DNA of 64,000 nt from Microcystaceae cyanobacterium (GTDB lineage: Bacteria > Cyanobacteriota > Cyanobacteriia > Cyanobacteriales > Microcystaceae), in NCBI GenBank assembly GCA_041746575.1, contig JBGTGT010000115.1, positions 1 to 64,000 of the forward strand, in the 5' to 3' direction. Below are positions 869 through 41,752 of the stretch, piece by piece; the first letter of the stretch is position 1, and each line of letters begins with the position of its first letter. The notes beneath the pieces were generated by a model. The model searched no databases, was not told where the DNA came from, and was given only the letters and a program-made list of their open reading frames with translations. The position numbers and the translations under genes were made by a program.

Positions 869-3800
869 TTACAAATTGAGTTTGAGTTGAATATACTGGT
901 CTTCATTGTCGTTGTTTTGAGACATTAAATTAAAGTTCTGCCAATATTCCTCTACCCAAAGTTCAGAACTACCGGGGCATTTTTGATCTCGTAAAAACCA
1001 TTGAATAAAGACAGCTTGTCTTTGATCTTCTGGCGGAAGAATTTGATAAATTCTTATTCGCTTTTTCGCTATTTTTTTAGTACCAATACAAGCGATCTTT
1101 AGACCCATTAAGTTCAGAAAACGACGAATAATTGTAATCGGACTACTCTTCAAAGCTAGTCCAATTTTAAGAACGGTTTTAATCTCATGACGATTTTGTA
1201 TTGCAAGGTTTGCCATTGCCTGTAAGTCAGGATCTAAAGGGGATAAAACTCGTTCAGGATAATTTAATAAAACCGAAATGCCCAAGACTTCCATGGTGCC
1301 AATAATAACCCCTAATTGCGATCCGTTAAAGTCAGGAAGGAAGAGACTTCCATGGCCTTGTCGAATCAAATTACGGGCAATAACAGTATCTCTATCTGAT
1401 AGAAAAGATCGTCCCATTGTCAAAAAATAATGTAGCCTTAATTGCTGATACCAACCCTGATCATCTAAAACAACAATTTGAGGAGTAATGGTGATGCCGT
1501 ACCGTTGTTTTAACTCAAACTTTCGGATTGAATGGCGTTGAGATTGGGATTTAATCAGTCGTTTTTTGAGAACTTTAAATTGTTCTTCTGTTAAATCTAG
1601 CGCATAAGCGATCGCCTTACATTCCGCTTGGTAATTCTGTTGTCGAACTTCATTAATTGCATCCGTTAGTTGAGTAATAGAACGACTATTTTGGTCTTCA
1701 CTCTTTGTTTTTTTAGGAGGATGATGTTCAATAATTTCGTGATTTTCTTGTCTTAATAAGCCTAAAATAGTTTCTCGATAATTAATCATTGCCGTATTTA
1801 CCCGAACGGCCATTTTTGCCCAACATAAAAGAGATTCTGCTTGAAAGCCGGTATCCCAATCATCTAAGGTGGTTAAATCCGATTGTTGCAATAGTCGAAT
1901 ATTTAACTGCGTTAAACGATGACCAGAAGTCAACAAATTTGGAATCGAAGTTGAACCATTACCGATAGTATTAAAACCATAATTTGCCACCCAAAGATAG
2001 CGAGGAATATTATCACGAATTCGATGTAAGGCTTGACTGACTGAAGTGGCTGTTTGTACCCCTTGAGCTAATCCCCAAACGGAGGTAAAGTGACACTTAA
2101 GATCAATACTAATACCCGTTTCGATGGCAGGACTCGCTAAGACAATATCATAATTTCTAAGCACTTGATCTAAGTGTTGCATACAATGATAAGCCGGATG
2201 AGCGGGATCACTTAAAGATTCGGAATCAAGACGCAGAATTTTTTGCTGAGGGAATTGTTTGACTAAGTAAGATTCAAGGTTTTGGGTTCCCCATTGACTA
2301 CTTAACTTTTGAGCAGAAAGACAAACAAAGGGTTTTCCCCCATTGCGAATATCTTTTACTAAGTCTTTAATAAATCTTTTCGGGCTATTATCTTGATAGT
2401 GATAAACTGGCCAAGTTTCGTTATGATTCGGTTTCCAGTCATTTTTGATAATAAAAGGAGTCAAGGAAAATCCAGCTAAAGCTATCATATATTCTAGGGA
2501 AATATCGCTCAAATCAGCATCGGCAAGATACACTTTTCCTTTTCCACTTAAAACCGTTTGTAATAACTTTTTAAAAGTTGTTAAAATCGCCACCCGATTT
2601 TTTTTGCAGGTATCTGAGTTTAGCCCATGCCATAAAACTTGTTCAACCTCGTCGATGATAATGATGGCATTGTGCCAATCGGCGACATCAAATTGAACTT
2701 GAGAATGGGGATGAAGAGAATCAATACACAAACCGTAACCGAAACTTGCACCACTATTTTTATCCTTAATTTCGCTGACATAAGGCAGACCAAAGCGTTG
2801 GCATAAAGCTTCAACCAACTTAATTCGATGGCCAATCACTAACACTTTTTTTTGAAGGGCGATCGCTTGTTTAACTAAGGTTGCTAAGTATTCCGTTTTC
2901 CCCGTTCCTTTGGGTGATTTAATCCCCACTAATTTTGCATTTTCAGGCAGATCGACCAGCGGAAGATAGGCAGAATTAACGACCGTTTGAGGAGAAAAAG
3001 TTAATTGATTTAACCCTTGTGCTTTCCACATTTCTAAGGGTAATGCTTGTTGAAAAATGGGGTCAAAAACTGTTGTGCCTTGACTGGCAATAACATCATC
3101 TACCCCCTTCCCCCATTCGGGTGGCCAAGTTATGATATAAATCTGACAACCTGCTTGGGTGAATAAATAACCTAGTTTGCGAATGGCAGTGTTAACCGCC
3201 TTAATGGTATGAGGGCAACTATCTTGATCGAAAATAATGTAGATTTTACGTTGTTTTGTCGCAAATTTTGCCAATTGAGGAATTAAATGAGATTTGCCGG
3301 TACGATTTCCCCACTCATCTTTGGGGGTACGATAACCATTATTGATTCCCGGTAATGCGATCGCTGCATAACCCATCGTCAACAGCGATCCTGCTTTTTT
3401 AGCTCCTTCGGTGATACAGATGGGAATATCGGGATTATTCAGTACCCACTGCCAAAAATCTCCCGATTCTGTATTTGTATTGAGGACGGCATTGGCTTTA
3501 TCATGATTGTGTCGTTGAGCGATTTTTTGCCAAAGTGCCGCAGGGACTTGTAACGCAAAGATACCCGTTGCGGTTTTGGGCGGATGCTCATATTTAATTA
3601 ATTTTTGGCGATCAAAACTTAAACGAGGTTGATTCGGCTTAAAACAGCCCCAGAGATCCTTCTCTCCCGTCATGACGTCAATTCCGGAACACCACCATCC
3701 CCCTGCTTCGGTATGTTCGTAACGCTTTAAAATGTCGTCTCTCACGCGGCCATCATTGCGTCGAGGCAGATGATCAGAATAAAATAGATATTCTGAGGGG

Positions 3801-3883
3801 GCAACCCCCTCTAAAGCAGTCACGTTGAGTTCAATCAGTTGTTGATCGACACAACTCTGTTGCCATTCCTGTAAGTAGTTCAT
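869..3883 (-). CDS. CyRepA1-family replication protein (DUF3854/TOPRIM primase-like domain plus helicase domain)
   Basis: KYEHPPK, ITEGAKKAG, FDQD and KGVDD primase-like motifs; Walker A SPKGTGKT; Walker B IIIDEVEQ; 1004 aa. Confidence 0.85.
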   Translation of the reverse strand: MNYLQEWQQSCVDQQLIELNVTALEGVAPSEYLFYSDHLPRRNDGRVRDDILKRYEHTEAGGWWCSGIDVMTGEKDLWGCFKPNQPRLSFDRQKLIKYEHPPKTATGIFALQVPAALWQKIAQRHNHDKANAVLNTNTESGDFWQWVLNNPDIPICITEGAKKAGSLLTMGYAAIALPGINNGYRTPKDEWGNRTGKSHLIPQLAKFATKQRKIYIIFDQDSCPHTIKAVNTAIRKLGYLFTQAGCQIYIITWPPEWGKGVDDVIASQGTTVFDPIFQQALPLEMWKAQGLNQLTFSPQTVVNSAYLPLVDLPENAKLVGIKSPKGTGKTEYLATLVKQAIALQKKVLVIGHRIKLVEALCQRFGLPYVSEIKDKNSGASFGYGLCIDSLHPHSQVQFDVADWHNAIIIIDEVEQVLWHGLNSDTCKKNRVAILTTFKKLLQTVLSGKGKVYLADADLSDISLEYMIALAGFSLTPFIIKNDWKPNHNETWPVYHYQDNSPKRFIKDLVKDIRNGGKPFVCLSAQKLSSQWGTQNLESYLVKQFPQQKILRLDSESLSDPAHPAYHCMQHLDQVLRNYDIVLASPAIETGISIDLKCHFTSVWGLAQGVQTATSVSQALHRIRDNIPRYLWVANYGFNTIGNGSTSIPNLLTSGHRLTQLNIRLLQQSDLTTLDDWDTGFQAESLLCWAKMAVRVNTAMINYRETILGLLRQENHEIIEHHPPKKTKSEDQNSRSITQLTDAINEVRQQNYQAECKAIAYALDLTEEQFKVLKKRLIKSQSQRHSIRKFELKQRYGITITPQIVVLDDQGWYQQLRLHYFLTMGRSFLSDRDTVIARNLIRQGHGSLFLPDFNGSQLGVIIGTMEVLGISVLLNYPERVLSPLDPDLQAMANLAIQNRHEIKTVLKIGLALKSSPITIIRRFLNLMGLKIACIGTKKIAKKRIRIYQILPPEDQRQAVFIQWFLRDQKCPGSSELWVEEYWQNFNLMSQNNDNEDQYIQLKLNL

Positions 3884-4227: not shown

Positions 4228-4258
4228 TTAAAGAAAGGCTACTATAATAGTAACCTTT
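4228..4258 (-). terminator. Intrinsic terminator of the phycobiliprotein-like pair
   Basis: 11-bp stem 4234-4244/4248-4258 (one G-U pair on the minus strand) followed by a T-rich tract, about 50 nt after the alpha-like stop. Confidence 0.65.
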
Positions 4259-4307: not shown

Positions 4308-4802
4308 TTACGCAAAGGTCGCAACCAATTGAGCAAAATAACCGTTTAATTCATCCTTCATTTCTTCGGGAACTTCTCCTGATGCTAGTAATAAATCCCT
4401 TGCTTGCGTTACCCCTTCAATACAAGAAGAAAGCGGAACATTAAGTGCTCGGAAAAACTCACCGACACTGCGGCCATTCCAGCGATAAATGGGGTCAGGA
4501 CTTCGGACAATTATACAATAAGAAATAATGCGCAAATAATCCCCAATATCTTGATACCAATGCTGAACTTTTTTGGGGGTATCTCCACAATAGCCAGGTT
4601 GTTTAAATTCGGGATGTCTTTTAACAAGCATATCTCCGGATTGTTGTACGAGAGAATCAATCATCTCCCCTAATTTTGCCACAAATTCAAGACGTTTTGC
4701 TTCTTGAGCAAGGCGTTCACCGATTTCTTGGCAATCGTAGTCGTTTAAAAAACGACCGGTTGTATCCGCATTCATCAACACACTGGTAATGATAGATTTC
4801 AT
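4308..4802 (-). CDS. Divergent phycoerythrin alpha-like phycobiliprotein lacking chromophore cysteines
   Basis: From ATG 4802 (MKSIITSV) it is 164 aa and colinear with CpeA (ADxxGRF, RLE, DIxxYLR, PxxxW, RALxxP); W at position 82 and L at 139, where CpeA has Cys. Confidence 0.85.
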   Translation of the reverse strand: MKSIITSVLMNADTTGRFLNDYDCQEIGERLAQEAKRLEFVAKLGEMIDSLVQQSGDMLVKRHPEFKQPGYCGDTPKKVQHWYQDIGDYLRIISYCIIVRSPDPIYRWNGRSVGEFFRALNVPLSSCIEGVTQARDLLLASGEVPEEMKDELNGYFAQLVATFA

Positions 4803-4844
4803 AGCACTCAACTCGTTTAATAATGAACAACAAAAAGGTTAGAT

Positions 4845-5351
4845 TTAATGGATAGAAGCTACCACAAAATCAAAAGCATCCGAGACTTCTTTAATTAAAT
4901 CAACGTCGTCGGTTATCGCTTCTGTGCGGAGTAATTCTACTGTTTTTCCTTTAACAATAGCTAAAGCAGATAGGGTTGAATCGAGAGAAACACCTAATAC
5001 TTGAAAGGTGTCTTTTAAGCCGAAACATTTATCTTCTAAGATGGAAATATCCCCTGCCGCAATAGCATAGGTGACATAGCGAAGCAAAATTTCCACATCA
5101 CTTGTAGCGTTTCCCATGCGACGATTAGGATAACAATTACCGCCGGGTTCAACTAAACTGGGATATTGGTTAATCATCCCTGAAATGGCTTCGGAGACAA
5201 TACTATTTTTATGGTCGTTGATTAATTTGACCGCATTCAGACGTTTGTGACTTTGATCGATGAATTTTTGCAGATTCGCCATGTCCTGTTTGGTTAAACA
5301 AGCCATACTTTGATTAGCTGTGGCGATCGCTCTTGAAAAAATATCTTCCAT
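4845..5351 (-). CDS. Divergent phycoerythrin beta-like phycobiliprotein lacking chromophore cysteines
   Basis: MxDxFSRA start, CpeB-type GGNCYPNRRM, LRYVTYA..AGD.S.L.D.C; S50, N61 and A82 in place of Cys; no C-terminal Cys. Confidence 0.88.
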   Translation of the reverse strand: MEDIFSRAIATANQSMACLTKQDMANLQKFIDQSHKRLNAVKLINDHKNSIVSEAISGMINQYPSLVEPGGNCYPNRRMGNATSDVEILLRYVTYAIAAGDISILEDKCFGLKDTFQVLGVSLDSTLSALAIVKGKTVELLRTEAITDDVDLIKEVSDAFDFVVASIH

Positions 5352-5708
5352 AGGACTGATCTCTTACCGTTTATTTTCCTACGATAAAAGATTCCTAAGA
5401 CTTTGAGCGCAAATATTGGCATTAATTAACGAAACAACGATCTATTGCCATAAATTCTAAAAAATCATCCGTAAGGCTACTGAAATTTCGGCTAATCTTA
5501 ATCTGAAATTATCCCTGATTTTGCGGAATACCCTTAGTATTTTTGCTTAAATTAGAACCATTGCAACATTTGATGTTTTTTTCTTGATATTACTGCCGTA
5601 AGCACATTTGGAGGAATTAGCCATTCTGTTTCTGTTCCTAATTCCCCTCTCTACTTTTGTTAATACACCGTTACTTAACGCTATTTTTCCTTTATTCTCT
5701 CAATTTTT

Positions 5709-6362
5709 TTACAATAAGCCTTCGAGGACAGCTCCTACAACTCGATGATCTTGATCTTGTTTTAACTGATTCAAGGCCGTTTGAGCAAGGGGATGTTTAA
5801 AGTAGTGTAAGCTGTAGGCAACTTGTACGCGAATTCGATGTGATTCCACAGTAATAAGAGAGAGTAATTGATTTAACGCTTTTTCCTCAGTATTTGTTCC
5901 TATTAACAATACAAGGCTTTCAATAGATACCTCTTGCACACTGGGATCTGGATCATTAATTCCCCATTGACACAATTGCCATAGTTCTAAGGGACAATTT
6001 AACGTTCCCATCGCCGCAAGTATGCTCTGACGAACTAACCAGTGATCATCCCGTTGAAACATTTCCATCAACTGTGGAACAGACGCTTTTCCGTAAGAAG
6101 CAAGAGAATTTGCCGCTTCTGCTCGCACGTTTGCATCCGGATCTTTTAATAATTGTAACAATCCTTCATAGGATTCTGGCGATCGCTTATAGCCTAGTCC
6201 CATAGCGACGAAGGAACGGATAATAAATTCTTGGTCGTTTAAGCAGTTTAGTAGCAAAGGAACAGCATTTTCAGGGGGATATTCCCGCAAAGAGGCGATT
6301 GCTTTTAATCTTTCTTGGGATTGAGGGCTTTGTAAAGCAGTCTTAATTTGTTGAAGTTCCAT
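5709..6362 (-). CDS. HEAT-repeat protein, NblB/CpcE-F (PBS lyase HEAT) family
   Basis: Repeated HEAT_PBS units (DPDANVRAEAANSL, DDHWLVRQSILAAM); 217 aa, the size typical of NblB-like proteins. Confidence 0.8.
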   Translation of the reverse strand: MELQQIKTALQSPQSQERLKAIASLREYPPENAVPLLLNCLNDQEFIIRSFVAMGLGYKRSPESYEGLLQLLKDPDANVRAEAANSLASYGKASVPQLMEMFQRDDHWLVRQSILAAMGTLNCPLELWQLCQWGINDPDPSVQEVSIESLVLLIGTNTEEKALNQLLSLITVESHRIRVQVAYSLHYFKHPLAQTALNQLKQDQDHRVVGAVLEGLL

Positions 6363-16696: not shown

Positions 16697-18679
16697 ATGA
16701 TTTTTACAGAACTAACGTTACAAAATTTTGGTCCTTATGCTGGCCGTCAAGTGATTGATTTACGTCCTGATACGCAAGAAATATATCGTCCTATCATTTT
16801 AATTGGCGGCATGAATGGTGGAGGAAAAACCACTTTAATAGATGCGATTCGTTTAGCTCTATATGGACAACGGGCGCAATGTTCAACCCGCAATCAACTA
16901 AGTTATAATGACTTCTTACTTCAGTGTATTAATCATCAAGTTTTTCCGATTGATTCAACGCGCATTGAGTTAGAATTAGAATATTTAGTGGCAGGACAAT
17001 GGAAAACATTAAGAATTGTACGTCATTGGACAAAACAACTAAAAGATGGGAAGGACACGTTAGGTATTGTCAGTGAAGAATGGCCAGATGAAAATTTAGC
17101 AGAAGCATGGGATGAATATATTGAGAGTTTATTACCGCTAGGCATTTCTAATTTGTTTTTATTTGATGGTGAACAAGTTAAAGAATTAGCCGAACAAGAA
17201 ACTCCCCCCCTAGCAGTAATTGAAGCCATTCAATCTCTATTAGGCTTGGAGTTAGCGGAAAAGTTAGCCATTGATTTAGACATTTTATGCAACCGTAAAC
17301 GTAAATCTTTAGCCAATACTCAAGCGTTAAAAACGATTGAAGAGCTAGAGGCAAAAATTGCTTTGTATGAGGAAGAAGCCGAACATTATGGCCAACAATT
17401 AACGACCTTACAAAATCAATTAGGGAAAGCGCAAGCGAATCATCAAGTCGCCTTAGATAAATTTCGCATTGAGGGCGGCAAAATTGCCGCAGAAAAAAGT
17501 AAAATTGAGAGTAAAATTCAAGATTTAGCAAAGACTGAAGAAAATAATCGTCAATCTTTAGTTGATTTAGCTTATTCTAGTCTTCCTCTTGCCTTAATTT
17601 CTTCCTTGTTGGAAGTAGCGACCCAGCAGGGAAAACAAGAGATACGACAGAAAAAAATCGAATCAGCTAAAGACATTTTACGAGAAAGAGATTGTCAACT
17701 ATTATCCTATTTACCTCAGATTAGTATAGAATCTGAACAGATTGAGAAAATCGCTTACTTTCTTGAACAAGAAAATCGAAAACTTTATCCTGACAATATC
17801 AATTATTCTCGCTGGTTAAACATTGAAGAAGAAACCTTAAAACAACTTGAGACCCTTTTAACTTATCAATTGAAAGAACAAGTTCAGTCAGCCCAAAAAC
17901 AGATCAAAGAACAACAACAACAAGAGAAAGATCTGGAGCGATTACAACAACAATTAACCACTGCCGCTTCTCCGGAAGCCTATGAAAATTTAGAGAAAAA
18001 TCTGAAATTAGCCCATAAAGCTTTAATTCAATATCAAACTGCTTTAGAAAAAGGAGAAAAAAATTATCAAGAAGCTCAGAAAAATATAGAGAAAACGAAA
18101 AAAGCTCTCGAAAAATTCAGTGAAGAATCTATCTCACACCACCAAGATGAATTTATTTTTCAATCAATTAGCAAAGCTCAACAAACCTTAAAATTTTTTA
18201 AAGAAAAATTGACCCTAAAAAAACTCAATAAATTAGAAAATGAAGTAACTGAATGCTTTCGTTATTTATTGCATAAATCAGACCTTGTGCATCGAGTGGC
18301 AATTGATACTTATAACTTCAAACTTTCTCTTTTTTCTCCTGAAGGAAAAACCGTGGCGAAACATCGTCTCTCGGCAGGAGAAAAACAACTCCTTGCCATT
18401 GCGTTTTTGTGGGGATTAGCACGGGTTTCTGGACGGCAATTACCGATAGCGATTGATACGCCTCTCGGCCGCTTAGATTCCTCTCACCGTGACCACTTAG
18501 TTGAACGTTATTTTCCTTCTGCTTCCCATCAAGTAATTCTCTTATCTACTGATACAGAAATTGCTGAAAGTGAAGTCAAAAAATTACGTCAACAAGATAC
18601 AATTGCCTCTGAGTATCTGTTAAAATATGATCCTGAAAGCCATCAAACAACTATTCAACCTAATACTTATTTTTGGTAA
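16697..18679 (+). CDS. dndD: DNA phosphorothioation ATPase DndD
   Basis: LQNFGPY, GGMNGGGKTT, LFLFDGEQV, long coiled coil, LSAGEKQLLA, IDTPLGRLDSSHR, SHQVILLSTDTEI. Confidence 0.93.
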   Translation: MIFTELTLQNFGPYAGRQVIDLRPDTQEIYRPIILIGGMNGGGKTTLIDAIRLALYGQRAQCSTRNQLSYNDFLLQCINHQVFPIDSTRIELELEYLVAGQWKTLRIVRHWTKQLKDGKDTLGIVSEEWPDENLAEAWDEYIESLLPLGISNLFLFDGEQVKELAEQETPPLAVIEAIQSLLGLELAEKLAIDLDILCNRKRKSLANTQALKTIEELEAKIALYEEEAEHYGQQLTTLQNQLGKAQANHQVALDKFRIEGGKIAAEKSKIESKIQDLAKTEENNRQSLVDLAYSSLPLALISSLLEVATQQGKQEIRQKKIESAKDILRERDCQLLSYLPQISIESEQIEKIAYFLEQENRKLYPDNINYSRWLNIEEETLKQLETLLTYQLKEQVQSAQKQIKEQQQQEKDLERLQQQLTTAASPEAYENLEKNLKLAHKALIQYQTALEKGEKNYQEAQKNIEKTKKALEKFSEESISHHQDEFIFQSISKAQQTLKFFKEKLTLKKLNKLENEVTECFRYLLHKSDLVHRVAIDTYNFKLSLFSPEGKTVAKHRLSAGEKQLLAIAFLWGLARVSGRQLPIAIDTPLGRLDSSHRDHLVERYFPSASHQVILLSTDTEIAESEVKKLRQQDTIASEYLLKYDPESHQTTIQPNTYFW

Positions 18680-18693
18680 AATTATTCACGATA

Positions 18694-19113
18694 ATGGAAT
18701 CCCCAATAGAACGATTTCGACTCTCTCAAACTGCTAGAGATCAACTGGTTAAACTAAAACGATATACTAAAATAGATCAATGGAATATTCTCTGTCGCTG
18801 GGCGTTTTGTTATTCTTTAGCTGAACCAAGCATTCCTGCCATGCTTCCCATTCCTGCTGATAGTAATCTGGAAATGAGTTGGCGCATTTTTGGAGGAGAA
18901 ATGGCCGATTTTTTATTAGTTGCTTTAAAACAAAGATGTCATAATGATGGCTTAGAAATTAATCAAGAAATCCTTGCTCAACAGTTTCGCTTACATTTAC
19001 ATCGAGGAATTGGCTATTTAGCGGGTTTAGCGGGGAATAATGAAGACGCTCAAATTCAGAAAATTGAAGATTTAATTCAGTTAGCCCTTCTCGAAAAGGT
19101 CAATACGTTTTAA
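18694..19113 (+). CDS. dndE: DNA phosphorothioation protein DndE
   Basis: RLSQTARDQLVKLKRYTKIDQWNILCRWAFCYSL and QFRLHLHRGIGYL motifs; directly after dndD. Confidence 0.93.
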   Translation: MESPIERFRLSQTARDQLVKLKRYTKIDQWNILCRWAFCYSLAEPSIPAMLPIPADSNLEMSWRIFGGEMADFLLVALKQRCHNDGLEINQEILAQQFRLHLHRGIGYLAGLAGNNEDAQIQKIEDLIQLALLEKVNTF

Positions 19114-19889: not shown

Positions 19890-20921
19890 ATGAGTCCAAC
19901 GATTGCCAGTTCTCAATCCGACACGGATAATCGCTACACCCTTCCTCCCGAAAATTCTAGAGAACGTGCCAAGAAGATGGTGCTAGACCTACAAGATGAA
20001 ATTTGCGCCGGATTAGAACAATTAGACGGAGAAGCAAAATTTCAGGAAGACAATTGGGAACGAGAAGAAGGGGGAGGAGGGCGCAGTCGAGTCATGTGCA
20101 ATGGCAGGGTTTTTGAACAAGGTGGCGTCAATTTTTCAGAAGTTTGGGGAGATACTTTACCCCTTTCGATTTTAACCCAACGGCCGGAAGCGGCCGGTCA
20201 TCGCTTTTTTGCTACGGGAACCTCGATGGTACTGCATCCCTGTAATCCTTATATTCCGACAGTTCACCTCAATTATCGCTATTTTGAGGCAGGTCCAGTC
20301 TGGTGGTTTGGGGGGGGCATTGATTTGACCCCTTATTATCCCTTTGTGGAGGATGTTAAGCATTTTCACCAAACCCTTAAAGACGCTTGTGATCGCCATC
20401 ATAGTGAATATTATCCCGCTTTTAAGCGGTGGTGTGACGAATATTTCTACCTTAAACACCGTCAAGAAACCCGTGGCGTAGGTGGCATTTTCTTTGATTA
20501 TCAAGATGGCAATGGCCGTTTGTATCGAGGAACAAATCCTGATGGCGAAGCGGCAAAATATAGTGAGAAAGTTGGCAACGTTCGCCAAACATGGGAAGAA
20601 TTATTTGCTTTTGCGCAAAGTTGCGGTAAGGCTTTTTTACCCAGTTATGTTCCCCTTGCAGAGAAGCGTCAAGAGACCGAATACGGTGAACAAGAGCGAA
20701 ATTTCCAACTCTATCGACGGGGACGCTATGTAGAGTTTAATTTAGTTTATGACCGTGGGACGATTTTTGGACTTCAAACCAATGGAAGAACGGAATCCAT
20801 TCTCATGTCTTTACCCCCTCTCGTTCGTTGGCAATATAACTATCATCCCAAAGCGGGGACACGGGAAGCACAACTTTATGATACGTTCCTCAAACCCCAA
20901 GATTGGCTGAATTTCAGTTAA
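19890..20921 (+). CDS. hemF: Oxygen-dependent coproporphyrinogen III oxidase
   Basis: [56 protein letters not shown]. Confidence 0.97.
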
Positions 20922-21021
20922 GATCGTAAAAGTTTTACTATGGGCGGGGTACCATGATTCGTTTCGGTCATTCTACCCTTTAGCCACCCTACCTGAATCT
21001 TACCCTCTACTTTCTACCTTT

Positions 21022-21747
21022 ATGAGTAACGACTTAGCAACACAATTACGGACAGGAACAGCAAAATCTCACACAATGGCCGAAAATACGGCTTTTATGA
21101 AGTGTTTTCTCAAGGGAATCGTCGAACCCGACCCTTTTCGTCAGCTTTTGGCTAATTTTTACTTTGTTTATTCTACCCTAGAAGCCGAATTAGCACGCCA
21201 TCAAGACCATCCCGTTGCTGGTCAGATTTATTTCCCTCAATTGAACCGAAAAGACCAATTAGCGCAAGATTTAGCCCATTATTATGGGGATAATTGGCAA
21301 GATATCATTCAACCCTCTGAAACGGGTAAAACCTATGTCGAACGCCTTAAAACCCTATCAGATACCCAACCCGAATTACTGGTTTCTCATGCTTATGTTC
21401 GTTACTTAGGGGATTTATCGGGAGGACAGGGGTTAAAGCGGATTATCCGTTCTGCGATGGACTTACCTGAAGGAGTCGGCACAAAATTTTATGAATTCAC
21501 AGAATTTCCTGATTTTGATGCTCAAAAAACTTTCAAAATGCAATATCGAGATACCTTAAATGGACTTCCCGTGGATGAAGCGATGGCGCAAAAAATCGTT
21601 GATGAAGCCAATTATGCTTTTGAATTGAACCAAAATATGATGCACGAATTAGAAGGTGCAGTTCAATCAGCGATTGGCGATGCGAAATTTCAAGCAATTA
21701 CGGGGAATAATCAGGCAGGAAGTACCGAAAAGGTCGGACAAGCTTAA
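21022..21747 (+). CDS. ho2: Heme oxygenase, Ho2-type
   Basis: SHTMAENTAFMKCFLKGIVE.DPFRQLLAN, HAYVRYLGDLSGGQ and GSTE tail, closer to cyanobacterial Ho2 than Ho1. Confidence 0.8.
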   Translation: MSNDLATQLRTGTAKSHTMAENTAFMKCFLKGIVEPDPFRQLLANFYFVYSTLEAELARHQDHPVAGQIYFPQLNRKDQLAQDLAHYYGDNWQDIIQPSETGKTYVERLKTLSDTQPELLVSHAYVRYLGDLSGGQGLKRIIRSAMDLPEGVGTKFYEFTEFPDFDAQKTFKMQYRDTLNGLPVDEAMAQKIVDEANYAFELNQNMMHELEGAVQSAIGDAKFQAITGNNQAGSTEKVGQA

Positions 21748-41143: not shown

Positions 41144-41752
41144 ATGAATCGCCTACTTTTGGCCTTTAGTTTGGCTTTATTCAATGTATTTCCTCTTTCT
41201 GCCCAAGAAATGCCTTCAACGGCAACTAACCTCGTTTCTCCGACGACCAAATTAGATTATACACCTCTAAAACGGTTATTAGATAATCAAAAATGGCGAG
41301 AAGCTAATGAAAAAACGGGTGAACTCATGTTAAAAGCCGGAAATCGTCAATTACAGGGTTGGATGACCACTGATGATATTTTAAATTTAGCCTGTTGGGA
41401 TCTCCAAACCATTGATTCTCTTTGGCAAGAGGCGTCGAATAATCATTTTGGTTTTAGTGTGCAGTTTCCCATTTTTATTCAAACCGGAAATCGTCCCGGA
41501 CGATTAATTTCCATTGAAGCATACGAAAAATTTGGCGATGTTGTCGGATGGCGACGTACAGAAGGAAACACCGCTAACGCTCAACCTCAATGGATTCAGT
41601 TTAAAGAAAACATCAATTTCAGCTTAGATGCGCCTGTAGGTCATTTGCCCCAAGTGCGTCAACAGTACAATTTAACGGGCAATCGTCTACAATACACGAT
41701 GTTAACGCAACGCTTAGTCGAGTGTAAAATCGTTTCTGTGCCTTCTCCTTAA
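41144..41752 (+). CDS. Exported GUN4-domain protein
   Basis: Signal peptide; DY..L..LL..QKWREAN..T, DLQTIDSLW..ASN.HFGFSVQ, APVGHLP. Confidence 0.88.
   Translation: MNRLLLAFSLALFNVFPLSAQEMPSTATNLVSPTTKLDYTPLKRLLDNQKWREANEKTGELMLKAGNRQLQGWMTTDDILNLACWDLQTIDSLWQEASNNHFGFSVQFPIFIQTGNRPGRLISIEAYEKFGDVVGWRRTEGNTANAQPQWIQFKENINFSLDAPVGHLPQVRQQYNLTGNRLQYTMLTQRLVECKIVSVPSP

Follow-up and report, generated by a model that had tools for sequence, protein, structure and literature searches.

We describe a pair of adjacent genes encoding phycoerythrin-like beta and alpha subunits in which every cysteine used for bilin attachment has been lost. The genes lie near the start of a 64,000-nucleotide stretch (hereafter the window) of contig JBGTGT010000115.1, from a Microcystaceae cyanobacterium. 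Covalent bilin attachment is treated as a defining property of light-harvesting phycobiliproteins; with all pigment-attaching cysteines gone, the pair should therefore have a role other than ordinary light harvesting. According to the abstract of one review, such attachment is mandatory for phycobilisome assembly (PMC2327270). Sequence comparisons indicate that the pair has nevertheless been maintained by purifying selection. Our preferred reading, to which we assign a probability of roughly 0.4, is that the two proteins form a low-abundance alpha-beta heterodimer that would hold a bilin non-covalently at the beta82 site, beside a rebuilt alpha pocket. Almost as probable is a regulatory or structural function that involves no bilin.

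The gene pair and its lost attachment sites

The elements of the locus considered here are the following.

5351..4845, minus strand: CpeB-like gene, 168 amino acids (open reading frame (ORF), PF00502, CpeB as top NCBIfam model, alignment, tree)
4803..4844, minus strand: intergenic spacer, 42 nucleotides
4802..4308, minus strand: CpeA-like gene, 164 amino acids, ATG at 4802 (ORF, PF00502, CpeA as top NCBIfam model, gapless alignment, tree)
5352..5517, minus strand: conserved upstream region, about 166 nucleotides (identity across three genomes)
4258..4234, minus strand: terminator-like hairpin about 50 nucleotides 3' of the alpha-like stop codon (11 pairs, 3 of them G-C, T-rich tail)
5709..6362, minus strand: HEAT-repeat gene of the phycobilisome-lyase/NblB-like type, 217 amino acids (Pfam HEAT_2, HEAT and HEAT_PBS)

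An earlier reading of the letters alone (the first-pass annotation) had described an intact beta/alpha pair spaced by 42 bp, with the alpha start at 4802. These coordinates are correct, and both genes are on the minus strand. The pair resembles C-phycoerythrin CpeB/CpeA in its fold, its short spacer and its cpeB-cpeA order, with the beta-like gene first. Both proteins match PF00502 well above the cut-off of 22.2 bits (beta-like, 129.5 bits over residues 8-165; alpha-like, 93.6 bits over residues 8-160). Their top NCBIfam models are CpeB (NF058508, 150.3 bits, spanning just profile positions 1-147 of 181) and CpeA (NF058506, 90.7 bits), which outscore the phycocyanin and allophycocyanin models but stay below their equivalog cut-offs of 275 and 225. 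The nearest solved structures of both proteins are phycoerythrin chains throughout. The alpha-like protein has the same length as CpeA (164 amino acids) and no indels: its residues 1-156 align without gaps to residues 1-156 of 2vjh_A, and the alignment to 3v57_A is likewise gapless. Beta-like positions are numbered here through an alignment to the solved chain 1lia_B. Identity to real phycoerythrin is 25-31% for the alpha-like protein and 40-49% for the beta-like one.

Unlike CpeB/CpeA, the pair lacks all six phycoerythrin attachment cysteines, the R84 of both subunits and the C-terminal loop of beta, while D85 is present in both. The alpha-like protein reads H81-W82-Y83-Q84-D85 and L139, that is, C82W, R84Q and C139L relative to phycoerythrin. 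The beta-like protein reads S50, N61 and N81-A82-T83-S84-D85 (C50S, C61N, C82A, R84S) and retains GGNCYPNRRM, including N72, as well as R77 and R78; its cysteine-bearing C-terminal loop is deleted, leaving it 15+2 alignment columns shorter than CpeB proteins of 184-186 amino acids. The beta attachment cysteines (50/61, 82 and loop) are absent in all six members of the clade defined below. Every residue named in the first-pass annotation agrees with our alignments to solved phycoerythrin chains, as does its remark that other cysteines were kept: four in the alpha-like protein (C24, C72, C96, C127) and three in the beta-like one (C18, C73, C109). The window's beta-like protein alone has H35, S122 and S128, where real CpeB and the other cysteine-less betas covering these positions have N, P and R; N35 and R128 are former contacts of lost peripheral bilins.

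Distribution, ancestry and selection

When 5.8 billion proteins were searched through a word index, the beta query had 11 matches: five ordinary CpeB proteins (40-49% identity) and six cysteine-less ones, namely the protein of the window itself, P0002-P0005 and the fragment P0006 (65-74% identity). The alpha query gave four matches at 69-70% identity. All the cysteine-less beta matches and the alpha matches share the substitutions of the pair. Of the family's 89 genomes, all three belonging to the window's genus (G000, which holds the window, G035 and G036) carry the pair and no others do, so that the orthologous pairs with the same substitutions proposed as a check by the first-pass annotation do exist; the remaining 11 family-wide matches are ordinary CpeA (29-34% identity). 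The recurrence of the same substitutions in two other genomes and in several metagenome proteins rules out a chance pair of ORFs. The two genes are adjacent in all three genomes, with spacers of 42, 36 and 36 nucleotides (the last two at L026, 8138 to 8175, and L027, 9702 to 9739), and the flanking genes are wholly different.

Wider searches added little. A pattern scan of one genome per species (185,579 species) found further loci only in G035 and G036. Within a sample of 401 genomes of the phylum, only G000 exceeded 200 bits; the other ten matches scored 170-181 bits, and five of these, once translated, are ordinary CpeA with KCYRD. Metagenome contigs contained no relevant locus (one weak match, L028, has 33% identity over 39 residues), viral contigs no match to the pair, seven plasmid records only ordinary phycobiliprotein genes below 31% identity, and the ESM Atlas only ordinary phycobiliprotein clusters. 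NCBI names the orthologues 'hypothetical protein'. We found no description of a cysteine-free phycoerythrin pair in the full-text literature, whose coverage leaves out most subscription journals; the 'phycoerythrin-like' mentions in PMC13649963 concern pigment fractions and not such a pair.

Both proteins fall inside phycoerythrin clades on long stems in the trees that the first-pass annotation had suggested. The five full-length cysteine-less betas form a clade (support 100/100) on a stem of 1.41 substitutions per site, nested in a 13-row CpeB clade (97/98), with CpcB and Apc outside; this tree was built by a careful method and is small (17 rows, leaving out the fragment P0006), and the stem is long. 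In the alpha tree (quick method, 59 rows, long branches flagged), the W82 sequences lie within a starred eight-row clade nested among CpeA, with CpcA and Apc-like rows outside. An alpha-profile search of 1.84 billion representatives gave 52 matches at E <= 0.001, only two of them at E <= 1e-30, and a profile search of the word-indexed collection gave 56 matches at E <= 1e-10. Four metagenome singletons join the four W82 alphas in the eight-row clade: P0016 (S82, F139, A72, T127), P0017 (F82, with C139 kept), P0018 (Y82, with C139 kept) and P0068, which retains C-Y-R-D. Because a CYRD-keeping protein and S82, F82 and Y82 relatives share this clade, Cys82 was lost more than once, or lost with one reversal, in a fast-evolving offshoot of phycoerythrin. 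The pair itself branched off within the CpeB and CpeA clades, evolved fast along its long stems and then settled.

Does the pair serve phycoerythrin itself? G000 is 99.78% complete and has cpcBA, apcAB, two single apc genes, apcE and a weak BBAG-like match; no true cpeBA was found in it. It has a single ferredoxin-dependent bilin reductase, and its only linkers are CpcC, CpcG and ApcE. With one reductase, no cpeBA and no phycoerythrin linkers, this genome cannot make phycoerythrobilin or phycoerythrin rods, a setting unlike that of CpeB/CpeA. G036 (77% complete) has genuine CpeB and CpeA with all their cysteines beside the cysteine-less pair, and three reductase genes, two of them in tandem and pebA/pebB-like. 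G035 (92% complete, 8% contamination) has one reductase and two cpcBA sets, and no CpeA was found in it. Since the pair is kept both with phycoerythrin (G036) and without it (G000), its function is independent of phycoerythrin and of phycoerythrobilin. The true cpeA genes of two related Microcystaceae, Rippkaea orientalis PCC 8801 and Gloeothece citriformis PCC 7424, are on plasmids (NC_011723.1 and NC_011738.1), which agrees with the uneven occurrence of phycoerythrin among genomes of the window's genus.

A functionless cpeBA duplicate heading for loss would suit a genome that has itself lost true phycoerythrin and phycoerythrobilin synthesis, and could account for the three changes private to the G000 beta copy (N35H, P122S, R128S). 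The substitution rates argue otherwise. The ratio of nonsynonymous to synonymous substitutions (dN/dS, Nei-Gojobori) is 0.067, 0.123 and 0.160 for alpha among the three genomes and 0.085 for beta between G035 and G036; beta comparisons with G000 are saturated at synonymous sites (proportions of synonymous differences, pS, of 0.81-0.84 against a nonsynonymous proportion, pN, of 0.23). Canonical ApcA, CpcA and ApcD-like genes of the same genomes give 0.046-0.108, and between G035 and G036, where the ratio for the pair matches that of canonical phycobiliproteins, its dN (0.045-0.054) is level with the 0.048 of ApcA. Relative-rate tests are symmetric, with no significant difference in any comparison (13 vs 16 and 11 vs 12, for example), which rejects a faster decay in G000, the lineage lacking phycoerythrin. 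No reading frame is broken in any of the three genomes, the orthologues have the substitutions in common and fixed, and the last 166 nucleotides or so before the beta start are 58-77% identical between genomes, against 22-48% farther upstream. Synonymous positions within the genes are close to saturation. Given the same-substitution orthologues, the low dN/dS, the symmetric rates and the conserved upstream region, we regard a decaying duplicate as very unlikely. A ratio near 1, which the first-pass annotation had associated with decay, is far from the 0.07-0.16 obtained. Nor does the pair belong to a characterised subfamily, as judged from its sub-cut-off NCBIfam scores and the lack of a literature match, and none of the outcomes that the annotation had listed as speaking against its own proposal was encountered.

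The conserved block at 5352..5517 is probably a dedicated promoter and 5' leader. On this strand it holds no sigma-70-like promoter match; a search by eye for NtcA, RpaB/HLR1 and RcaC L-box motifs gave no convincing match in the block, and Rfam had no match in it or anywhere in the window. Of the terminator claimed in the first-pass annotation, the hairpin at 4258..4234 is plausible as a structure; since the region has one such site where shuffled sequences have 1.3 +/- 1.3, it is no more than chance would give. A recent foreign origin is not indicated: GC content at third codon positions is 0.32-0.34 for the pair against a genome mean of 0.35, and the window otherwise carries ordinary chromosomal genes.

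Former bilin pockets, dimer interface and the question of a ligand

Is the loss of all attachment cysteines compatible with a bilin still being bound? The hydrogen-bond and covalent contacts of the five C-phycoerythrin bilins, as given in the part of PMC5783998 available to us, were mapped onto our alignments (its beta numbering is two lower than that used here). At the beta82 bilin, these excerpts place N72 at the ring A nitrogen, R77 and R78 at the ring B propionate and D85 at the ring B/C nitrogens. Four of the six contacts of this pocket (N72, R77, R78, D85) are kept and are invariant in all six sequences; the only losses are the thioether cysteine, replaced by A, and R84, replaced by S. 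The alpha82 pocket keeps D85 alone and has acquired new states in all four orthologues (A72C, K81H/Q, C82W, R84Q, Y127C), with H81 itself not invariant (H/H/Q/H). Phycoerythrin alpha has A (or P/D) at position 72 and Y at 127; the same excerpts have residue 72 touching ring A of the alpha82 bilin and Y127 holding D85. Segment 100-124 of alpha is rebuilt and nearly invariant, the changes D106Y, V116F, G100R, G101S, G103D, G109N and A111R being clade-invariant. Peripheral positions vary in beta (50 S/K, 54 E/A/D, 61 N/K/A/E, 36 K/S/A, 39 N/Q), and in alpha Q28 has become G/A/E, with L, L/M and G at 137, 139 and 142. The peripheral sites (beta50/61, beta158 and alpha139) thus look dismantled and partly drifting. 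That these lost sites drift while beta82 is conserved and alpha82 is fixed anew argues that the two central pockets remain under selection.

Modelling of the alpha-beta dimer, which the first-pass annotation had recommended, gave an ipSAE score of 0.86 with the canonical X-Y-helix interface, against 0.00 for the best of three controls, although this pass may reflect likeness only, because phycobiliprotein alpha-beta complexes have already been solved. The mark is reached by 116 of 157 solved complexes and by 2 of 215 mismatched pairs. Across three model runs, 98% or more of the contacts coincide, and the pLDDT of the partner is 86 or higher. Within the clade, a larger share of positions is invariant at the modelled interface than elsewhere in the protein (beta 74% vs 50%, alpha 62% vs 53%), and the alpha interface is also closer to phycoerythrin (54% vs 29% for the rest). 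The predicted interface counts, with GGNCYPNRRM and D85, among the features retained from CpeB/CpeA. The view of the pair as a repurposed heterodimer under selection rather than in decay, put forward in the first-pass annotation, is thereby supported on several sides: orthologues, dN/dS, conservation upstream and at the interface, and a passing dimer model.

How abundant the dimer might be can be gauged from codon usage. When 1,552 long ORFs are ranked on a scale set by the genome's own cpc/apc genes, beta stands at the 92nd percentile, alpha at the 46th, and cpcBA and apcAB above the 99th. Such ordinary codon usage points to an accessory component of low abundance and not to a bulk antenna. 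A search of sequencing runs gave five DNA runs from two studies, three of which may be the source of the assembly, and no RNA run.

These observations can be assembled into a tentative model. The two proteins would form a canonical alpha-beta 'monomer' through their N-terminal X-Y helices, with the three peripheral antenna sites (beta50/61, beta158, alpha139) simply gone. The beta82 pocket, with its ring-A, propionate and pyrrole-nitrogen contacts, would most likely hold a bilin non-covalently; in G000 this would be phycocyanobilin or biliverdin, predicted to be the only bilins that can be made there. The alpha82 pocket would be rebuilt around C72, W82, Q84, C127 and segment 100-117. Such a dimer may act as a low-abundance bilin-responsive, bilin-buffering or specialised phycobilisome-associated element. 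We consider somewhat unlikely a more specific version in which the pair is a reversible bilin-binding device, with beta82 binding phycocyanobilin or biliverdin without a thioether and its state read or gated through C72, W82 and C127 of alpha. If true, the device could sense or buffer bilins, or serve the phycobilisome as an accessory that is red-shifted or quenching.

Several points weigh against a non-covalent bilin. R84, the holder of the ring-C propionate, is lost in both subunits, as are K81 and Y127 at the alpha82 site. Conservation of beta 70-79 may serve the fold or contacts within an oligomer instead of a ligand. The aromatic residue at alpha82 (W here, with F and Y in more distant proteins) could plug the pocket just as readily as it could stack on a bilin. 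Conservation statistics are drawn from 4-6 sequences, since the family is very small and comprises a single genus and a few metagenome clusters of one member each. Abundance is only weakly indicated by codon usage.

The same features can be explained by a bilin-free, 'colourless' heterodimer with plugged or collapsed pockets, in which the fold is reused as a protein-protein module: a rod cap or spacer, a regulator of assembly or degradation, or a decoy for lyases or NblA/NblB-type factors. We hold this to be a possible reading, though not the favoured one. It accommodates the absence of six attachment cysteines and both R84, and also the alpha pocket, which gains bulk through C82W, D106Y and V116F and has small residues replaced by G100R, G101S, G103D, G109N and A111R. 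Three Cys82-less lineages have an aromatic residue at 82 (W, F, Y), the interface is conserved above the rest of the protein, and an NblB-like HEAT gene adjoins the pair in G000. However, that gene is adjacent in just one of the three genomes. The beta82 pocket shows no filling substitution, since C82A accompanies N72, R77, R78 and D85 in all six sequences, and D85 is invariant in every Cys82-less alpha lineage in spite of long branches.

Alternatively, a bilin could be attached covalently at a shifted cysteine, alpha C72 or C127, in an unconventional geometry. The first-pass annotation had raised C72 as an alternative attachment site; the idea gains some weight from the ring A contact of residue 72 (PMC5783998, excerpts) and from invariance in four of four orthologues. 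A72C and Y127C both occur in all four W82-type orthologues, at positions that in the C-phycoerythrin excerpts contact ring A and hold D85. The accessible part of PMC10151467 also describes bilin-binding globins with cysteine motifs other than CXRD, such as RGMC of BBAG-2. We nonetheless think it improbable: the distant Cys82-less alpha P0016 has A72 and T127, the place beside ring A is taken by W82, and the other bilin holders, K81, R84 and Y127, are all changed.

Still less probable is a ligand unrelated to bilins (heme, another tetrapyrrole, or a metal or redox centre formed by new cysteines), with the pair as its carrier or sensor. The fold is globin-like, new clade-invariant cysteines (alpha C24, C72, C127) and a histidine (beta H47) are present, and heme oxygenase and hemF genes are found about 15-16 kb away in the window. 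Such a distance is not linkage, however; Pfam and NCBIfam recognise no known heme or Fe-S site motif, and alpha H81 varies among the four orthologues.

Neighbouring genes, known systems and significance

The HEAT-repeat gene at 5709..6362 scores 88 bits against the NblB model, below its cut-off of 300. Homologues with 50-56% identity are elsewhere in G035 and G036, and those in G028, G010 and G036 (L085, L086 and L088) stand, in divergent orientation, beside an AplA-like (allophycocyanin-like) gene of 177-192 amino acids with an N-terminal extension and a C-W-R-D motif; in G036 this group is followed by pebA/pebB-like genes. A functional link between the HEAT gene and the pair is unsupported by synteny, with adjacency found only in G000 and different flanks in all three genomes. 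Directly downstream of the pair is a gene for a 1004-amino-acid protein (869-3883, minus strand; DUF3854, 180 bits, with weak helicase/AAA matches). In G036, as read from the sequence, an ATPase-like ORF lies directly upstream of the pair and a group II intron reverse-transcriptase-like ORF about 3.5 kb upstream. The sites occupied by the pair may be variable ones that are prone to mobile elements.

Farther along the window, an AAA_23/SMC-like ATPase gene (660 amino acids) followed by a DndE-family gene (16697-19110, plus strand) may be an incomplete piece of a dnd system for DNA phosphorothioation. The coproporphyrinogen III oxidase (hemF) and heme oxygenase genes are in tandem at 19890-21744 (plus strand) and a GUN4-like gene is at 41144-41749 (plus strand); these tetrapyrrole genes are unlinked to the pair. 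Past the end of the window, on the same contig, a second, more divergent lyase gene of the CpeT/CpcT family lies at C115:72955-73509 (minus strand), about 68 kb from the pair, and scores 160 bits against 232 for the copy on contig C55.

Which known systems come closest? In the FaRLiP (far-red light photoacclimation) system, ApcE2 has no canonical cysteine and binds phycocyanobilin non-covalently with a red shift, and an ApcD is also cysteine-less, according to the available portions of PMC9415938 and PMC12279586. These proteins share with the pair a phycobiliprotein fold lacking the canonical cysteine and are the sole precedent on record for a mechanism by which it might operate. They differ in belonging to the allophycocyanin lineage and to a FaRLiP cluster with one cysteine-less subunit or domain, whereas here both subunits are cysteine-less and of phycoerythrin lineage, and R84 is lost as well. 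The pair is not of FaRLiP type: its top matches are phycoerythrin, and G000 has no apc paralogues beyond apcAB, two single apc genes and apcE.

AplA-like proteins, which are allophycocyanin-like, are likewise non-canonical phycobiliprotein paralogues with no obvious antenna role, and in related genomes their genes adjoin a homologue of the HEAT gene. Unlike the pair, those compared here (190 amino acids) carry an N-terminal extension, match Apc models best and keep C-W-R-D; none was found in G000.

BBAG and photoglobins bind bilins without lyases. In the part of PMC10151467 at hand, photoglobins carry CXQD, and BBAG-2 lacks CXRD yet binds biliverdin. The alpha-like W-Y-Q-D resembles the xXQD form of these motifs. 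BBAG proteins, by contrast, fall outside the light-harvesting phycobiliprotein clade and are clustered with V4R and Fe-S proteins (same source, in part), whereas the pair nests in phycoerythrin clades and its neighbours are the HEAT and DUF3854 genes, so we do not count it as BBAG. Elsewhere in G000 (C12:1036-4368, L011), a 157-amino-acid protein, which matches PF00502 weakly and no NCBIfam model, is encoded between a pair of ferredoxin-like genes and the gene for a 230-amino-acid protein, putatively V4R; this cluster resembles the cyanobacterial BBAG/V4R/Fe-S cluster in the accessible text of PMC10151467.

Six attachment sites have been lost across both subunits, and yet the pair is under as much constraint as ApcA, and it survives in a genome without phycoerythrin or phycoerythrobilin. 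This shows that selection can maintain the phycoerythrin fold for something other than covalent light harvesting. As a natural scaffold, the pair would lend itself to studies of non-covalent bilin binding, with a bearing on far-red tuning and on the engineering of fluorescent proteins. It would equally suit a study of how a multi-chromophore antenna is taken apart site by site, with peripheral drift, one central pocket preserved and the other rebuilt. If the reversible bilin-binding device is real, it would represent a new functional class of phycobiliprotein, possibly with a new attachment chemistry.

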